A stretch of DNA of 64,000 nucleotides from Candidatus Nanoarchaeia archaeon (lineage in GTDB: Archaea > Nanobdellota > Nanobdellia > Woesearchaeales > DATDXC01), in NCBI GenBank assembly GCA_035289425.1, contig DATDXC010000032.1, positions 22,550 through 86,549 of the forward strand, written 5' to 3'. Within the stretch, counting starts at the first letter, position 1. The number at the start of each line of letters is the position of its first letter. Shown here in pieces: positions 3,380-49,340 of this stretch. Position numbers and translations under genes: made by a program. Below the pieces are notes generated by a model. That model saw only the letters and a list, made by a program, of their open reading frames with translations. It did not search any database and had not been told where the DNA came from.

Positions 3380-3862
3380 ATGGTGGATACAGTGAAGGAA
3401 AACAAAGAACAGAAGAAGAAAGATGACGCAGACGTCAAAATTGCAGAGCTGACTGAGTCTCTCCAAAGATTACAGGCAGAGTTTGAGAATTACAAGAAAT
3501 ATGTGGAAAAGGAAAAGGTAGAATTTACAAGGTACGCCAAAGCAGATATACTGCAGAAACTGCTGCCCCTCTTAGACTCATTTGAGCTATCTCTCCAGCA
3601 TAGGGGGAATAAAGAGGAATTCATCAAGGGAATGGAGATTGTCTATTCCCAATTCCACACCTTATTGGAGAAGGAAGGCCTGAAACCCATCAAAGCAGAA
3701 GGTAAGTTAAATCCCCATCTGCATGAGGTGCTGTTAATGGAACCTTCAGCTAAGGAAGAAGATACCATATTGGCTGAACTGCAAAAAGGATACATGCTTT
3801 ATGATAAGGTTTTACGATATAGCAAGGTGAAAGTAAGCAAAAAGGATGATAAACCTCAGTAA
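3380..3862 (+). CDS. grpE: nucleotide exchange factor GrpE
   Basis: A coiled-coil N-terminus followed by a GrpE-like C-terminal beta domain. Its position upstream of dnaK supports the call. Confidence 0.8.
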   Translation: MVDTVKENKEQKKKDDADVKIAELTESLQRLQAEFENYKKYVEKEKVEFTRYAKADILQKLLPLLDSFELSLQHRGNKEEFIKGMEIVYSQFHTLLEKEGLKPIKAEGKLNPHLHEVLLMEPSAKEEDTILAELQKGYMLYDKVLRYSKVKVSKKDDKPQ

Positions 3863-4361
3863 AGATACACCACTTAAGGATGTGATGAAGTTGGCACATC
3901 CATGTGGCTGTAATGCATGTACCATAGGGTGCAAGCTGGGGAGCGGAATATTAGCGGATGAGGATCTTGCAAAGATCGCCCATTTTTTGGGAAAAACAAA
4001 AGAGGAAACCAAAAAAGAGTTTTTAGAGGAAGTAGAGAGATTCAACACAAAACGGTTCAGGCCTAAGGTGTTAGGCAAGCCGTATGGACAGTGCATCTTT
4101 TTTGATGGAAAAGAATGCAAGATACACGAAGTCAAGCCGTTGGAATGCGAGATTTCAATGGGATGCGAGGAGTATGGCGAGCAGTTAAGCATATGGTTCA
4201 TGCTCAATCATTTTGTGAACAAAAATGACCCTGAATCGATCCGTCAATATGATGCGTATCTGAGGTCAGGAGGCAAGACATTGCCCGGAGGCACGCTTGC
4301 GGATCTGGTGCCAAATGCAGAGCAATTGAAGAAAATCTTGAAATTTGAGATTTTAAGATAA
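3846..4361 (+). CDS. Cys-rich hypothetical protein (YkgJ-like zinc/iron-chelating domain?)
   Basis: Multiple CxxC-like Cys clusters, for example 'HPCGCNACTIGC'. Confidence 0.35.
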   Translation: MINLSKDTPLKDVMKLAHPCGCNACTIGCKLGSGILADEDLAKIAHFLGKTKEETKKEFLEEVERFNTKRFRPKVLGKPYGQCIFFDGKECKIHEVKPLECEISMGCEEYGEQLSIWFMLNHFVNKNDPESIRQYDAYLRSGGKTLPGGTLADLVPNAEQLKKILKFEILR

Positions 4362-22986: not shown

Positions 22987-23059
22987 AGCCCCGTGGTGTA
23001 GCGGTCAATCATTCTGGCTTTTGGAGCCGGAGACGGCGGTTCGAATCCGCCCGGGGCTA
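22987..23059 (+). tRNA. tRNA-Gln (anticodon TTG)
   Basis: Acceptor AGCCCCG/CGGGGCT, anticodon arm CTGGC-TTTTGGA-GCCGG, T-arm GGCGG-TTCGAAT-CCGCC, discriminator A. Confidence 0.85.
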
Positions 23060-23254
23060 TTTAGGCAATTGGTTCCTCGGTTATGAAGTCAATCTCTTAG
23101 ATAAGACCAAAATATAAAACTATTCATGCTAGATCCGCTACACTTTCCATTCGGTACGAATTTTTATTTTCTGAGTTGAAAATATGAAGCGTAGCGTATT
23201 TTCAACGAAAGTTTTATATACTAAATATATAATATTATATATTAACTATATAGC

Positions 23255-23932
23255 ATGAAAGCCTATAAAGATACGGAAAACAAGATAGTGGGGAATTTAT
23301 TAAGGCAGCCACTGATAAGCAAAAGCGTGCATCAGATTGCATTAGATACAAAATTAATGTATGTAACTGTGCATAAAATAATCCCTCTTTTATTGGGAAG
23401 AAGACTGATAAAACTAGAAAAAAAAGGAAATACCAACCTTATCTCCGTAGATTTTGAAAATGCAAAAATCGGGGATTTAAGTTCTGCTATATTGTCTGAG
23501 AAAGATACATTAATGAAGAAATATCCCCCCGTCGCTATTCTAACAAAAGATATTGAAGACGCGTTATCCGGAAAGCTATATATTTTACTTTTATTTGGCT
23601 CTTACGCTAAAGAAATTCCAAGGCAAAGCCTTGTAAGTTTATCAAACTCAAAAGAGTTCGATAAAAAAGAAAAAAAAGACTCGGATGTTGATCTTCTTTT
23701 TATCGTCTCTAACAGAAAAGATATTGAATTTTACAAAGAAAAAATTAATAAAGCTTTGAGGTTATCAACATTAAAAAATGATTTTAACATAGTTACCACA
23801 GATGATTTTGTGGATATGTTAAACCAGAAATACACGGTTGGCAGAGAGGCTTTTGAGCAAGGAATTGTGCTTTTTGGGACAGAGCCTTATTATGCTATGG
23901 TAAGGGGACATGCTACAAAAAGAGGATATTGA
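23255..23932 (+). CDS. nucleotidyltransferase (MNT-type, with N-terminal wHTH)
   Basis: Has the 'LLLFGSYAKE ... DVDLLFIV' minimal NTase motif. It overlaps the next gene by 23 nt. Confidence 0.6.
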   Translation: MKAYKDTENKIVGNLLRQPLISKSVHQIALDTKLMYVTVHKIIPLLLGRRLIKLEKKGNTNLISVDFENAKIGDLSSAILSEKDTLMKKYPPVAILTKDIEDALSGKLYILLLFGSYAKEIPRQSLVSLSNSKEFDKKEKKDSDVDLLFIVSNRKDIEFYKEKINKALRLSTLKNDFNIVTTDDFVDMLNQKYTVGREAFEQGIVLFGTEPYYAMVRGHATKRGY

Positions 23933-24521
23933 AGAAGCAAAGAAGCTCTTTACAGAGTGGGATAACAAGCGTAGGTGGGATACTCCACACCCTGCTTTTT
24001 TGAACCATACAAAGAAAAAGGCGCAAGACTCTTTGAATTTAGCATTGTATCTTTTAGACAAGGTCGAGCAAACAGGAGAGCTTGAAGGTAATGACACAGT
24101 TACTATATGGATTATTGCTGCAAGTTATTACTCAATGTTTTTTGGGGTTGAATATTTATTAGGATTGGATGGAAAAAAGCTTCCGAAAGGAGCAAAAGAC
24201 ACCCACAAAACAATGTATCTTGCTTTTATCTATTACTATATAATAAAAGGATCTGAACTAGAACAGAAAAAGCCTACAGAGATAACAACGAGTAGAATGT
24301 CAAAAGCATTGGCAATATTCAAAGAATTACAAGATGAAACTCTTGAATTGCATAGAATAGAGAAAGGCGCTAAAGACTTGAAAGAACAAAAAGATGAAAG
24401 AAATGCTTTTACTTACCAAATGAACAGGACAGCAAAATTGTCTGAAGCTCAGAACAGCACCATAAAAGCAACAGAATTTAGGGAATTGATTGAAGAGTAC
24501 ATCCTGTCAAAACAGAAATAA
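23910..24521 (+). CDS. HEPN-like partner protein of the nucleotidyltransferase (putative)
   Basis: An alpha-helical 203-aa ORF whose reading frame overlaps that of the NTase gene. Confidence 0.4.
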   Translation: MLQKEDIEEAKKLFTEWDNKRRWDTPHPAFLNHTKKKAQDSLNLALYLLDKVEQTGELEGNDTVTIWIIAASYYSMFFGVEYLLGLDGKKLPKGAKDTHKTMYLAFIYYYIIKGSELEQKKPTEITTSRMSKALAIFKELQDETLELHRIEKGAKDLKEQKDERNAFTYQMNRTAKLSEAQNSTIKATEFRELIEEYILSKQK

Positions 24522-24538
24522 ATGCAAGGTTTTAAACT

Positions 24539-25255
24539 ATGGAAGAAAAAAGCCAAGCAGTTAAGGAATACAAGCAAGCTTTTGATGAATTTTATAAAGA
24601 TAAGCCAGAGCCCAAAGACAAAGAAGAAAGCAAAAAAATGTTGGAAGAGTTCTTTCATTGGTATAATAATGTGAGGAAACAGTCTGATATCGGAAAAACT
24701 CCTGCTGAGATGTACAAGGAAATCTATGGTGTAGGCCCTTCTAAGACAGTAGACCTAGATGAAGGAGTAGAAGAGGGTATTAATGAGGAGGAGATAGAAG
24801 ATTTGAGGGAGTTTTTTGATAGGGAGCTCTGGCCAAAACTAAAGAAGGATTTGAAAGAAGCGACCAAAAAGGAGGCATGTTTCATTAGTTTTTTAGCTGG
24901 AACGGAGATTTCAAATAACATGTTTGAAGAAGAAATGAAACATACTCAGAAAACTTTTGAAAATATGACTCCGGAAGAAATCACAAAGATGATTAAGAAG
25001 GAGGAAAACCCCAAAATGAGAGAAGAAAGTCTTTGGGCAGAAGGCGGATTTATGGAAACATTAGGTCCAATTGATATTAAAGAAAGAATGAAAACATTTC
25101 ACAAAAAGCATGACGAAGATATGAATTATGAATGTAAGAAATGCGGAAAAAAGATTTCGGCCCATAACAAAGATTGGCATGCTTATATGTGTGATGAATG
25201 TTTTAATGAAGAGTGTTATCCTGGAGAGCAGGAAGAAAAAATAAAAACAAAATGA
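24539..25255 (+). CDS. hypothetical protein with C-terminal zinc ribbon
   Basis: A Lys/Glu-rich ORF with C-terminal 'CKKCGKK...CDEC' motifs. Confidence 0.4.
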   Translation: MEEKSQAVKEYKQAFDEFYKDKPEPKDKEESKKMLEEFFHWYNNVRKQSDIGKTPAEMYKEIYGVGPSKTVDLDEGVEEGINEEEIEDLREFFDRELWPKLKKDLKEATKKEACFISFLAGTEISNNMFEEEMKHTQKTFENMTPEEITKMIKKEENPKMREESLWAEGGFMETLGPIDIKERMKTFHKKHDEDMNYECKKCGKKISAHNKDWHAYMCDECFNEECYPGEQEEKIKTK

Positions 25256-25260
25256 GGTGG

Positions 25261-25375
25261 TAAACATGAGTTCGACACCGGGGTTCAAATCCTGGAAAAA
25301 AGCCGAACTGCGTACCACCGACTAAGTGGGCTTGAACGAAGCAAAATCCACGAAGGTGTCGACTGGCTTCTTAGT
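25261..25375. ncRNA. tRNA-like structured element of unresolved identity (possible tRNA fragment or ncRNA)
   Basis: Contains a T-arm-like 'CCGGGGTTCAAATCC' and an 8-bp inverted repeat, TCGACACC...GGTGTCGA, enclosing ~75 nt. No canonical cloverleaf could be built on either strand. Confidence 0.3.
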
Positions 25376-25445
25376 CTGTGGGAACCTGCCAGGAGTTATT
25401 TTCTCAGATATCTTTATTAACTAAATCTCGTGTCTGCATAATGAA

Positions 25446-25521
25446 GGGGTTGTGGTCTAGCTTGGATTATGATACGTGGTTCGGGGCCACGTGGCCGGGA
25501 GTTCAAATCTCCCCAACCCCA
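25446..25521 (+). tRNA. tRNA-Pro (anticodon CGG)
   Basis: Acceptor GGGGTTG/CAACCCC, anticodon arm CGTGG-TTCGGGG-CCACG, T-arm GGGAG-TTCAAAT-CTCCC, discriminator A. The D-arm carries a U13-U22 mismatch. Confidence 0.75.
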
Positions 25522-35455: not shown

Positions 35456-35564
35456 AGCGGGGTAGGGCAGTCAGGAGTGCCCGGGGGGCTCATAACGCTC
35501 ACTGTCGAAGCGGCAGTCGCTGTTCGAAACCCCCAGGTCGGTGGTTCAAATCCACTCCCCGCTA
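35456..35564 (+). tRNA. tRNA-Met (anticodon CAT) with ~34-nt intron at the canonical 37/38 position; initiator-like features
   Basis: Acceptor AGCGGGG/CCCCGCT gives an A1:U72 pair. D-arm is GGGC/GCCC. The anticodon stem is GGGGG/CCCCC, split by an intron at ~35495-35528, with loop CTCATAA. T-arm is GGTGG-TTCAAAT-CCACT. A1:U72 and three G:C pairs in the anticodon stem suggest an initiator. Confidence 0.8.
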
Positions 35565-48384: not shown

Positions 48385-48409
48385 ATGCGCCGGCCGGGAT
48401 TCGAACCCG
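48385..48409 (-). repeat. partial duplicate of the tRNA-Gly 3' end (intron-less T-arm plus acceptor 3' strand)
   Basis: In tRNA orientation it reads 'CCGGG-TTCGAAT-CCCGG-CCGGCGC-A'. It is identical to the 3' part of the tRNA-Gly gene at 49209-49229 but lacks that gene's 29-nt T-arm insert. Confidence 0.6.
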
Positions 48410-48461
48410 GATAGCAAGTTTTAAATATTTTCCTTCTTTTTCTAATCCCACTCGTTGTACT

Positions 48462-49241
48462 ATGATTAAAAAAAGACTAAGTCTTTCGGAAAAGAATTAC
48501 ATCAGAGAGATGGTTCAATCCGGCCTCTCGTTGAAGAATATTGCAAACCGCACAGGAAAAAGCAAAACAACTGTTTACTACTACTTTAGAGACATAAGGG
48601 GTAGAACTATCCTGCCCATAACAATAAATGAGGAGAAAAGTGAGCTAGTGGGTGAGTTTTTAGGGATAGTTGCTGGTGATGGCTGCCTGAATAAAACTAA
48701 ACAGCACCATTATAGAGTCTATCTTTTCTTCAATAAGAAGGAGCACGCATATGTCAGAGAGCTGTATACTGCTCTTTTTTATGAGCTTTTCAAGAAGCAG
48801 CCTTCCCTATTTGACCGGAAAGAGAGGGATATATTTATCTTATATTTCTGCTCCAAAGAGATTTATTTTTTTGTCAAGAGGTATCTTACGTGGGATATGA
48901 CTACCAGAAAGAGCCATTCGGTGCACCTAAAATCAAGGAACCACACTACCCGATTTAAGATTGGTTTCTTAAGGGGGCTAATCGATAGTGATGGTTATTT
49001 GTCCAACGACAGAATTGTGTTCAGTACGAGTTCTATGAAATTGGCTGCTGATATTATGCAATTCCTAGATGAATTACATATCAGTTATGGTTTTCACATC
49101 TATAAAGAAAAGAGAGAAAACAGGGTGGATATGCAACACATCACCATCAAGAGAAGAGACCGGAACAAATTTTTGAAGGTCATAAAACCCCGCGAAAGAA
49201 AAAATATATGCGCCGGCCGGGATTCGAATTTCCGGACTTAA
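48462..49241 (+). CDS. LAGLIDADG homing endonuclease (double-motif) with N-terminal HTH
   Basis: Motif 1 'LGIVAGDGCL' and motif 2 'LRGLIDSDGYL', with an N-terminal HTH 'SLKNIANRTGKSKTTVYYYF'. Its last 11 codons are antisense to the 3' end of the tRNA-Gly gene. Confidence 0.8.
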   Translation: MIKKRLSLSEKNYIREMVQSGLSLKNIANRTGKSKTTVYYYFRDIRGRTILPITINEEKSELVGEFLGIVAGDGCLNKTKQHHYRVYLFFNKKEHAYVRELYTALFYELFKKQPSLFDRKERDIFILYFCSKEIYFFVKRYLTWDMTTRKSHSVHLKSRNHTTRFKIGFLRGLIDSDGYLSNDRIVFSTSSMKLAADIMQFLDELHISYGFHIYKEKRENRVDMQHITIKRRDRNKFLKVIKPRERKNICAGRDSNFRT

Positions 49242-49340
49242 GGAGAACCTTAAATCTCCCGGATAAACGGCTTGGAAGGCCATTGTCATTTACGGCAACT
49301 TTTACCCATGTAAAAGCTGTAGCCATTAGACCACCAGCGC
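49209..49340 (-). tRNA. tRNA-Gly (anticodon TCC) with two putative non-canonical introns (D-loop ~34 nt; T-arm 29 nt between positions 53/54)
   Basis: Acceptor GCGCTGG/CCGGCGC with an A discriminator, and anticodon arm ATGGC-CTTCCAA-GCCGT. T-stem 5' CCGGG is separated from TTCGAAT-CCCGG by a 29-nt insert containing a GGAGAACC...TCTCC hairpin. The D-stem GTCT/TGAC is separated by a 34-nt insert. Confidence 0.6.

Follow-up and report, generated by a model that had tools for sequence, protein, structure and literature searches.

Among the islands known from streptococcal ICE/CIME systems, the CIMEs are, like other integrase-less islands, flanked by att sites and devoid of recombination genes, so that they need a recombinase supplied in trans, and they can accrete in tandem at one tRNA gene. 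The locus considered here lies in a 64-kb window, by which we mean the whole stretch of DNA that was analysed (64,000 nt), and it resembles the CIMEs in being a small att-bounded island without recombination genes of its own; it differs from them in that no helper element or recombinase was identified for it.

That integrated elements leave fragments of tRNA genes behind as attR scars is well established for archaea and bacteria (PMC9897764). In the PYG1 island at tRNA-Gln of Pyrococcus yayanosii (PMC9897764), as in the window, a complete tRNA gene is present at one end and a T-arm/acceptor fragment in the same orientation at the other, the DNA in between is foreign and compositionally distinct, and the fragment can mislead tRNA annotation. 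In comparison with scars of this type, the fragment in the window is decayed, without any exact repeat and with its acceptor strand lost, and it is set in remnants of more than one arm; furthermore, the island is only ~2.3 kb long, has no integrase and belongs to a DPANN host. Disruption of a tRNA gene driven by a mobile element was described for tRNA-Thr of Caldiarchaeum subterraneum, in which an insertion of ~1.8 kb beside the tRNA gene has likewise left a displaced tRNA fragment and the resident tRNA carries an extra intron (PMC3293823). The intron is paralleled in one homologous island (L092, described below) and at the tRNA-Gly locus of the window; however, the Caldiarchaeum insertion encodes a recombinase and its displaced piece is a 5′ fragment, and the tRNA-Gln of the window has no intron. 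The split and permuted tRNA genes of Nanoarchaeum, Caldivirga and Thermofilum (PMC3218864, PMC3978253) are similar to our stretch in presenting a stand-alone T-arm piece, in a lineage known for disrupted tRNA genes, but in the stretch the acceptor strand is missing, a partner joined through a bulge-helix-bulge was not seen within the 64-kb window, and a cloverleaf cannot be reconstructed.

With respect to these systems, the stretch 25256-25401 belongs with the known attR-side tRNA-gene fragments, from which it differs in being degenerate and multi-layered and in bordering a very small integrase-less island of a DPANN archaeon. Precisely, we consider it likely that 25256-25401 is the degenerate right border, i.e. 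the attR-side arm with relics of tRNA-Gln att sites, of a foreign integrase-less island of ~2.3 kb located at the 3′ end of tRNA-Gln.

All the features described here for the locus are on the + strand. The island is a low-GC region of three genes (GC 0.30-0.37 across 23100-25300, against 0.40-0.45 on both flanks) that begins at an intact tRNA-Gln(UUG) at 22987-23059, detected by both ARAGORN and Rfam (59.7 bits), which would represent the integration target and the attL end. It is followed by the left arm and promoter region (23060-23254), where GC falls from ~0.43 to 0.30-0.37 and whose proximal part aligns with the left arms of the homologous islands L100 and L092 (e.g. ATTTTCAAC..AAAG). The first cargo gene (23255-23932) encodes a 225-aa nucleotidyltransferase of the Pol-beta/MNT type (Pfam PF18765, E = 2.3e-6) that is not orthologous to the cargo of L100, and the second (23910-24521) encodes a 203-aa protein with no assigned function, no Pfam match, a weak PHROG match and no similarity to the HEPN gene of L100. 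The third gene (24539-25255), the last one before the stretch, encodes a 238-aa protein, helical with a C-terminal zinc ribbon, whose homologues are 67-83% identical; it is the conserved terminal gene of the island family. On the other side of the stretch, the host gene tRNA-Pro(CGG), outside the island, is at 25446-25521 (ARAGORN, and Rfam with 52.7 bits), with a TATA-like sequence TTTATTAA recognised by eye at 25413-25420, ~26 nt upstream, as its putative promoter element. These tRNA-Gln and tRNA-Pro genes were the only ones called by ARAGORN; Rfam added one intron-containing tRNA at 35456-35564.

The AlphaFold2 model of the 238-aa protein is all-helical plus the zinc ribbon, without a recombinase fold. 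Its N-terminal helices show a weak likeness to the end of DDE integrase cores (rve_2, E = 0.008; Foldseek E ~6, not significant). The identification of this protein as a recombinase was unsupported by Pfam, PHROGs, the AlphaFold2 model and Foldseek.

The stretch starts one base past the stop codon of the 238-aa gene. Its first part is a right-arm block (25256-25324) composed of GGTGGTA (25256-25262), a first T-loop-like relic AACATGAGTTCGACACC (25263-25279), a T-arm-like hairpin (25278-25295) and a proximal arm motif TACCACCGACTA (25313-25324), which ends after CCGACTA. The hairpin reads CCGGG-GTTCAAAT-CCTGG and contains the exact T-loop consensus GGTTCAAATCC. The first-pass annotation had described a near-canonical T-arm at this place, and the T-arm-like sequence is indeed there, near-canonical at best: its loop is of 8 nt, and forcing a loop of 7 nt produces a G.G mismatch in the stem. 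Exact matches to GGTTCRAATCC in the 64-kb window are four (the hairpin, tRNA-Gln, tRNA-Met and a tRNA-Gly 3′ fragment), and allowing for at most one mismatch there are 7 against 2.1 expected, a number reached in 0/100 shuffles. Since these matches exceed the shuffle expectation, the tRNA likeness of the hairpin is not due to chance. The hairpin is followed by AAAAAAGC (AAAAAAG...), in which no plausible acceptor strand can be recognised.

The 8-bp stem that had also been annotated is real, with TCGACACC (25272-25279) pairing with GGTGTCGA (25355-25362); it is weak evidence alone, because by an arithmetic estimate roughly 0.1 perfect 8-mer pairings are expected in 115 nt. It links the first-arm relic to the remnant of a second arm and has no counterpart in L100. 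Two further inverted repeats, unmentioned in that annotation, are GGTGGTA/TACCACC (25256-25262 and 25313-25319) and GACTAAG/CTTAGTC (25320-25326 and 25370-25376). Fold stability is unremarkable on both strands, with z = -1.87 on the + strand (7/200 shuffles fold equally well) and z = -1.03 on the - strand.

For the comparison, homologues of the 238-aa protein (67-83% identity) were traced to their contigs, and this provided four independent homologous arms. In L092, L100 (the same locus as L094) and L101 the homologue is the last gene before a right arm and an att repeat; the homologues behind which the arm and exact tRNA 3′-end copies were recognised have 78-83% aa identity. The L101 island, 1.9 kb in length, begins at tRNA-Glu(UUC) and carries a Bro-N protein and the 238-aa homologue as last gene; downstream from the latter there are GAGGTGGTTAACATCGGTTCAAAACATGG..., an inner segment GTCGAGCAAAATCTAACGATTTTGTCGAC and then CACTAACCACCGACCACAAACCAACTG, directly followed by a copy of the tRNA-Glu 3′ end of 31 nt, 100% identical between 1946-1976 (the tRNA-Glu itself) and 3854-3884. 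The motif TAACCAC occurs in L101 in the left arm, in the distal right arm (inverted) and in the proximal right arm. The L100 island lies behind tRNA-Gln(CUG), and its arm GAGGGGGTATAGATGAGTTCGACACCAGAGTTCGAATCCGGGAAAAAG...CTACCTACCACCGACTACAAACCAAAACTG is followed by an exact 28-nt copy of the tRNA-Gln 3′ end, beyond which there are a 150-nt segment and one more copy; in all, four copies of the tRNA-Gln 3′ end are present in this contig. In both L100 and L101 the exact att repeat comes immediately next to the motif TA(A)CCACCGAC(Y)ACAAACCAA..CTG, with tRNA-Gln or tRNA-Glu as target alike. L099 is the same kind of island, flanked in this case by a repeat of ~40 nt that corresponds to the 5′ end of a Xer-like integrase ORF.

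In L092 the 238-aa homologue is followed by TGTGGTTAAATAGGTTTGATATAT and then by AGGTTCGAATCCTGGCAGGGCTA, a run of 23 nt that reproduces exactly positions 51-73 of a bona fide tRNA-Gln in L048; the att fragment GGTTCGAATCCTGG continues here as CAGGGCTA, the acceptor 3′ strand of tRNA-Gln. The tRNA-Gln at the left end of L092, which carries a 40-nt intron in the T-loop, is a chimera of a host 5′ part and an element-derived 3′ part, because its 5′ acceptor strand AGCCCUG would be fully complementary to the displaced CAGGGCU, but needs two G-U pairs to match the resident UGGGGCU. As a separate observation, the window contains at 49209-49340 a tRNA-Gly with two non-canonical introns that was missed by the standard tools. 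At both loci, L092 tRNA-Gln and the tRNA-Gly of the window, a border-rebuilt tRNA has an intron in the T-arm and a displaced fragment has none.

In this island family the direct repeats extend from about tRNA position 47-51 to 2-3 nt beyond the discriminator. The cargo varies among loci (nucleotidyltransferase, HEPN, Bro-N) and is non-orthologous, the terminal gene and the arm are constant, and the host flanks differ. No integrase or recognisable recombinase gene was found with Pfam and PHROGs in the window island or in the four homologous islands. On these sequence comparisons, what the islands of the family share is the last gene, which does not change, the conserved right arm and the directly repeated 3′ end of the target tRNA, whereas their cargo is variable. 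We know of no described counterpart for the conserved end module, i.e. the 238-aa gene with the arm. The more distant members of the 238-aa family, P0012 and P0017, have no adjoining tRNA; similarity of L095 to the stretch was not significant, and DNA-pattern and protein scans of viral contigs gave 0 matches.

The right-arm block of the window (25256-25324) is 84% identical to that of L100, and over the first 32 nt the L101 arm is matched as well, with a score beaten by 1/2000 shuffles. Over the first 45 nt of the arm, identity between the window and L100 is 84%, against 50% at the fourfold-degenerate sites of the adjacent 238-aa gene (n = 38). Because the arm is more conserved than these sites, part of it is likely under some constraint, as a DNA site or as RNA, with a function in the active relatives.

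The hairpin region 25273-25291 matches the variable region, T-stem and T-loop of the window tRNA-Gln at 15/19 positions (11/1000 shuffles), and GGTTCAAATCCTGG|AAAAAAG of the window occupies the site of GGTTCGAATCCTGG|CAGGGCTA in L092 (score beaten by 8/2000 shuffles), so that the hairpin is the positional homologue of the L092 fragment and, putatively, a fossil tRNA-Gln att core. The arm motif TACCACCGACTA stops at 25324, and what L100 and L101 have next, ACAAACCAA..CTG and an exact att repeat, is absent. After this point, 25325-25381 aligns with the L100 segment beyond the att repeat, precisely with the 150-nt stretch between att copies 3 and 4, and would be the remnant of a second, related right arm; within it, AGCAAAATCCACGAAGGTGTCGAC at 25340-25363 is homologous to the L101 inner right arm (score beaten by 3/2000 shuffles). 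The last piece, 25382-25401 (GAACCTGCCAGGAGTTATTT), matches GAATCCGCCCGGGGCTATTT, the 3′ end and trailer of tRNA-Gln at 23043-23062, at 15/20 positions, which is not significant alone (138/1000 shuffles); it is homologous to L100 3174-3200 (GAACCTGCCCGGGGGGGCTATT), which a repeat search grouped with the three other tRNA-Gln 3′-end copies of L100. We consider it as a degenerate copy of the 3′ end of tRNA-Gln with its trailer, and as the probable outer edge of the insert.

These comparisons point to tRNA-Gln, and not to tRNA-Pro, as the source of the T-arm-like motif. The likeness to the T-arm of the downstream tRNA-Pro, on which the first-pass annotation had remarked, holds for the generic T-loop, to which the similarity is confined, and does not hold for tRNA-Pro as a specific source; an att repeat of tRNA-Pro was rejected on this ground.

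Other sources of comparison were less informative. No empty site, i.e. a tRNA-Gln beside a tRNA-Pro without the island, was found; ten more copies of the locus are present in metagenomes, all with 100% identity over 25255-25445, and are therefore uninformative. The window belongs to a Nanoarchaeia/Woesearchaeota-like archaeon: NCBI lists the product of the terminal gene under Candidatus Nanoarchaeia archaeon (locus tag VJH97_02945). Identity of the flanking HisRS to proteins from Nanoarchaeota/Woesearchaeota-type MAGs does not exceed 67%, and a synteny search anchored on it in 80 genomes found no conserved neighbourhood. Homologues of the 752-aa hydrolase reached only 43-45% identity, with no synteny, and a search for simple direct repeats in 20-30 kb of the window gave none that was informative.

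The att remnant, one of the possibilities that had been listed for the region between tRNA-Gln and tRNA-Pro, is favoured because homologous islands keep exact tRNA 3′-end repeats at the same position. At the other end of the window island there is a complete tRNA-Gln in the same orientation, and the intervening DNA is foreign or variable, as indicated by the GC trough, the differing cargo and the differing host flanks; the island encodes no recombinase of its own. The location at tRNA 3′ ends, the direct repeats and the chimeric tRNA of L092 are what site-specific recombination of a tRNA gene with the att site of an element leaves behind, as is documented for many elements of archaea and bacteria (PMC9897764). 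Since no island gene has an integrase domain, the recombinase would be supplied in trans, and it would join the att site of the element to the T-arm/acceptor part of the tRNA gene. As the outcome, the tRNA on the left would be complete, with part of its sequence coming from the element, and on the right a 3′ fragment of the tRNA would remain, displaced. In the window the hairpin would be the displaced tRNA-Gln fragment, with its acceptor strand lost, and behind it there would be the truncated proximal arm TACCACCGACTA, the arm remnant of a second element and the more decayed copy of the tRNA-Gln 3′ end at 25382-25401. Such an arrangement may have been produced by tandem or successive insertions followed by deletions, an order of events that we reconstruct from the present sequence. 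The stems would then be inverted DNA repeats within and between arm segments. The island is at present fixed in place, and its excision by the original sites is no longer possible, because no exact repeat with tRNA-Gln longer than 7 nt survives in the window.

A further-reaching proposal, which we regard as unlikely in its full form, is that these islands constitute an undescribed family of integrase-less tRNA-targeting elements of ~2 kb in Nanoarchaeia/Woesearchaeota, with tRNA-Gln, tRNA-Glu and, in L099, the 5′ end of the Xer-like integrase gene as targets. According to it, the end module (the 238-aa protein and the TACCACC arm) would have a recombination or targeting function of its own, acting as protein-DNA sites or as a structured RNA, and the elements could deliver T-arm introns to the tRNAs that they rebuild, a possibility to which L092 and the tRNA-Gly locus of the window point.

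The arm could instead encode a small structured ncRNA of the mobile element or of the host, formed through a GGUGGUA/UACCACC stem with inner hairpins and acting as a 3′-UTR or regulatory RNA or as a tRNA-like handle. This is in accordance with the conservation of the block right after the stop codon, at least as high as that of the gene (84% vs 50% at fourfold sites), with a matched change in the outer inverted repeat of L101 (GGTGGTTA/TAACCACC in place of GGTGGTA/TACCACC) and with a + strand that folds slightly better than shuffles (z = -1.87). However, the covariance-model search that the first-pass annotation had proposed, run with Rfam on the stretch, gave nothing at the gathering threshold or even at E<=10, save an 11-nt T-loop match to the tmRNA model, and the homologous sequences in L092, L094 and L095 gave nothing at E<=5. 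Nor are the helices kept: in the comparative alignment, which had also been proposed, the arm is 84% identical to L100, as stated above, but the outer stem of L100 (GGGGGTA/TACCACC) contains one G.A mismatch and the T-arm-like stem has two broken pairs, G80-U93 changed to A.G and G82-C91 changed to A.C, and the 8-bp stem lacks its partner. The window, L100 and L092 were aligned to test the T-arm-like and the AGUUCG/CGAACU helices for covariation and none was found, with 75.8% of cells paired against 75.6% in the shuffles, i.e. a score equal to the shuffled mean; in the T-arm-like helix, 4/5 pairs depart by unpaired cells only.

The geometry of the outer repeat also bears on this. Its arms are separated by anything between 50 and ~110 nt, with large indels, and the left arm of L101 also has the same 7-mer in direct orientation, inside a 31-nt stretch that resembles the proximal right arm. 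Because of the direct orientation and the variable spacing, protein-binding sites fit better than an RNA helix, and GGTGGTA/TACCACC may be a pair of such sites on the DNA. We consequently judge an ncRNA, which had been named among the initial possibilities, quite improbable, as it is left without support by Rfam, by covariation and by the helix-breaking substitutions. An RNase P-like or SRP-like second half, suggested by the motifs GUCCAC and GGCUU, was also considered and rejected, without Rfam support in the window or in L094.

The stretch might also be a piece of a disrupted tRNA gene, i.e. a split 3′ half, a circularly permuted gene or a gene with several unusual introns, to be joined or spliced to give a working tRNA, and the permuted or split half had been suggested in the first-pass annotation. 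The exact T-loop consensus of the stretch, the DPANN host, the two non-canonical introns of the window's own tRNA-Gly, missed by standard tools, and the T-loop intron of the L092 tRNA-Gln are all in line with this possibility. A split 3′ half should show a T-arm and then a 7-nt acceptor 3′ strand with the discriminator; in the stretch the T-arm-like stem is instead followed by AAAAAAG, whereas an acceptor strand is present in the tRNA-Gly fragment at 48386-48410 and in the L092 fragment. The sequence before it is the end of the 238-aa coding region, which is conserved, pairing in the T-arm-like stem is disrupted in L100, the Rfam tRNA model gave no match at E<=10, local matches included, and no candidate for a partner 5′ half was seen within the 64-kb window.

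Searches for a hidden tRNA gave the same answer. ARAGORN (default and -i) found no tRNA in the stretch, and ARAGORN and Rfam agree with the first-pass annotation on the absence of a cloverleaf on either strand. After every single deletion in 25150-25445, on both strands, ARAGORN called no tRNA at the near-default -ps95, and at -ps80 all the calls were spurious; a deletion beginning just past the T-arm, with a canonical intron allowed, also gave none. The scan for permutations considered 8190 combinations of 5′/3′ junctions and all the rotations of 25235-25445, on both strands, and yielded 0 tRNAs, the relaxed threshold included. As positive controls, the same deletion scan recovered the L092 tRNA-Gln with its T-loop intron, and manual splicing of the two-intron tRNA-Gly of the window gave a clean cloverleaf. 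The permuted or split half therefore failed the Rfam, deletion, deletion-plus-intron and permutation tests, and we consider any disrupted tRNA gene at this position as extremely improbable and already largely refuted.

Protein coding of the stretch, by read-through of the 238-aa gene past its TGA or by a short ORF of 19 codons from the ATG at 25266, is equally far-fetched and was rejected: 55 further sense codons are open in frame after the TGA and a gene caller predicted in L094, from the corresponding ATG, an ORF of 50 aa, but no protein among 5.8 billion clusters spans the extension, the frame closes after three codons in L101 (CGA GGT GGT TAA), in either frame most of the changes that separate the window from L100 are non-synonymous (1 synonymous vs 5 non-synonymous and 1 vs 3, respectively) and a 7-nt indel puts the shared TACCACCGACTA in different frames in the window and in L100.

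With the degenerate right border of an integrase-less island as the preferred reading, the stretch should be annotated as a tRNA-derived scar, and not as a tRNA, a split-tRNA half or an ncRNA. It marks a family of small integrase-less islands in the little-studied DPANN archaea, some relatives of which have clean att repeats. Standard tRNA finders miss genes in the lineage of the window, and the two cases of T-arm introns, in L092 and at the tRNA-Gly of the window, bear on the origin of archaeal tRNA introns, for which a mobile-element model has been put forward (PMC3293823).

A second tRNA-bounded mini-island is present in the window, at a gene for tRNA-Gly(UCC) that is interrupted by two non-canonical introns (49209-49340, - strand). 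The first intron is 30 nt long (49316-49287) and lies in the D-arm, at position 23/24, and the second is 29 nt long (49257-49229) and lies in the T-arm, at position 53/54. The gene was detected neither by ARAGORN nor by Rfam, the latter even at E<=1, and a clean 73-nt cloverleaf was obtained once it was spliced in silico. At 0.8 kb downstream from this gene there is an intron-less copy of its last 25 nt, corresponding to the T-arm and the acceptor strand (48386-48410, - strand). Between the tRNA and its 3′ copy, on the opposite strand, lies an ORF encoding an HTH and LAGLIDADG homing-endonuclease-like protein (48462-49241, + strand; Pfam E = 8.7e-12). The repeated segment holds an intron in the resident tRNA, and the displaced copy is without it.

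Among the related contigs used for comparison, L092 carries at the left end of its island a chimeric tRNA-Gln(CUG) with a 40-nt T-loop intron (163-275), and at the right end an intron-less 23-nt tRNA-Gln 3′ end (1739-1761), both of which are also found in L091 and L093. The 23-nt fragment of L092 is identical to positions 51-73 of the tRNA-Gln of another contig, L048. An intron-bearing tRNA accompanied by an intron-less displaced 3′ end agrees with the model in which tRNA introns can be introduced by the integration of mobile elements (PMC3293823). A further intron-bearing tRNA of the window, tRNA-Met(CAU) (35456-35564, + strand; intron of ~34 nt adjoining the anticodon), was detected by Rfam, and by ARAGORN only with the intron option.

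Repeated tRNA-Gln sequences were also observed on L048 and L100. On L048 (3846-3920), a second partial copy of the 3′ end (CTGGCAGGACTA) lies ~50 nt downstream from an intact tRNA-Gln(CUG), which suggests the footprint of a former insertion at the same hotspot. On the contig L100, ahead of the island, a 124-nt direct repeat (215-338 and 878-1001, 663 nt apart, 99% identical), each unit of which comprises a complete tRNA-Gln(CUG) and 48 nt of upstream sequence, flanks an ORF of 156 aa that is read from the opposite strand; in total, the tRNA-Gln 3′ end is present on this contig in four copies.

As regards the 238-aa zinc-ribbon protein of the island in the window (24539-25255, + strand), its N-terminal ~65 residues (...FFHWYNNVRKQSDIGKTPAEMY) show a weak similarity to the helices that close DDE integrase/transposase cores at the C-terminal end (Pfam rve_2, E = 0.008); the catalytic residues are missing. 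In other proteins, this region occurs as a fusion to YkgJ, SEC-C and PRiA4_ORF3 domains.

An island of the same family, with a Bro-N gene and a 233-aa homologue of this protein, is found on the contig L099 (227-268 and 1907-2071), flanked by a ~40-nt direct repeat that corresponds to the start of an ORF for a Xer-like tyrosine recombinase. Therefore, the targets of the island family are not limited to tRNA genes.
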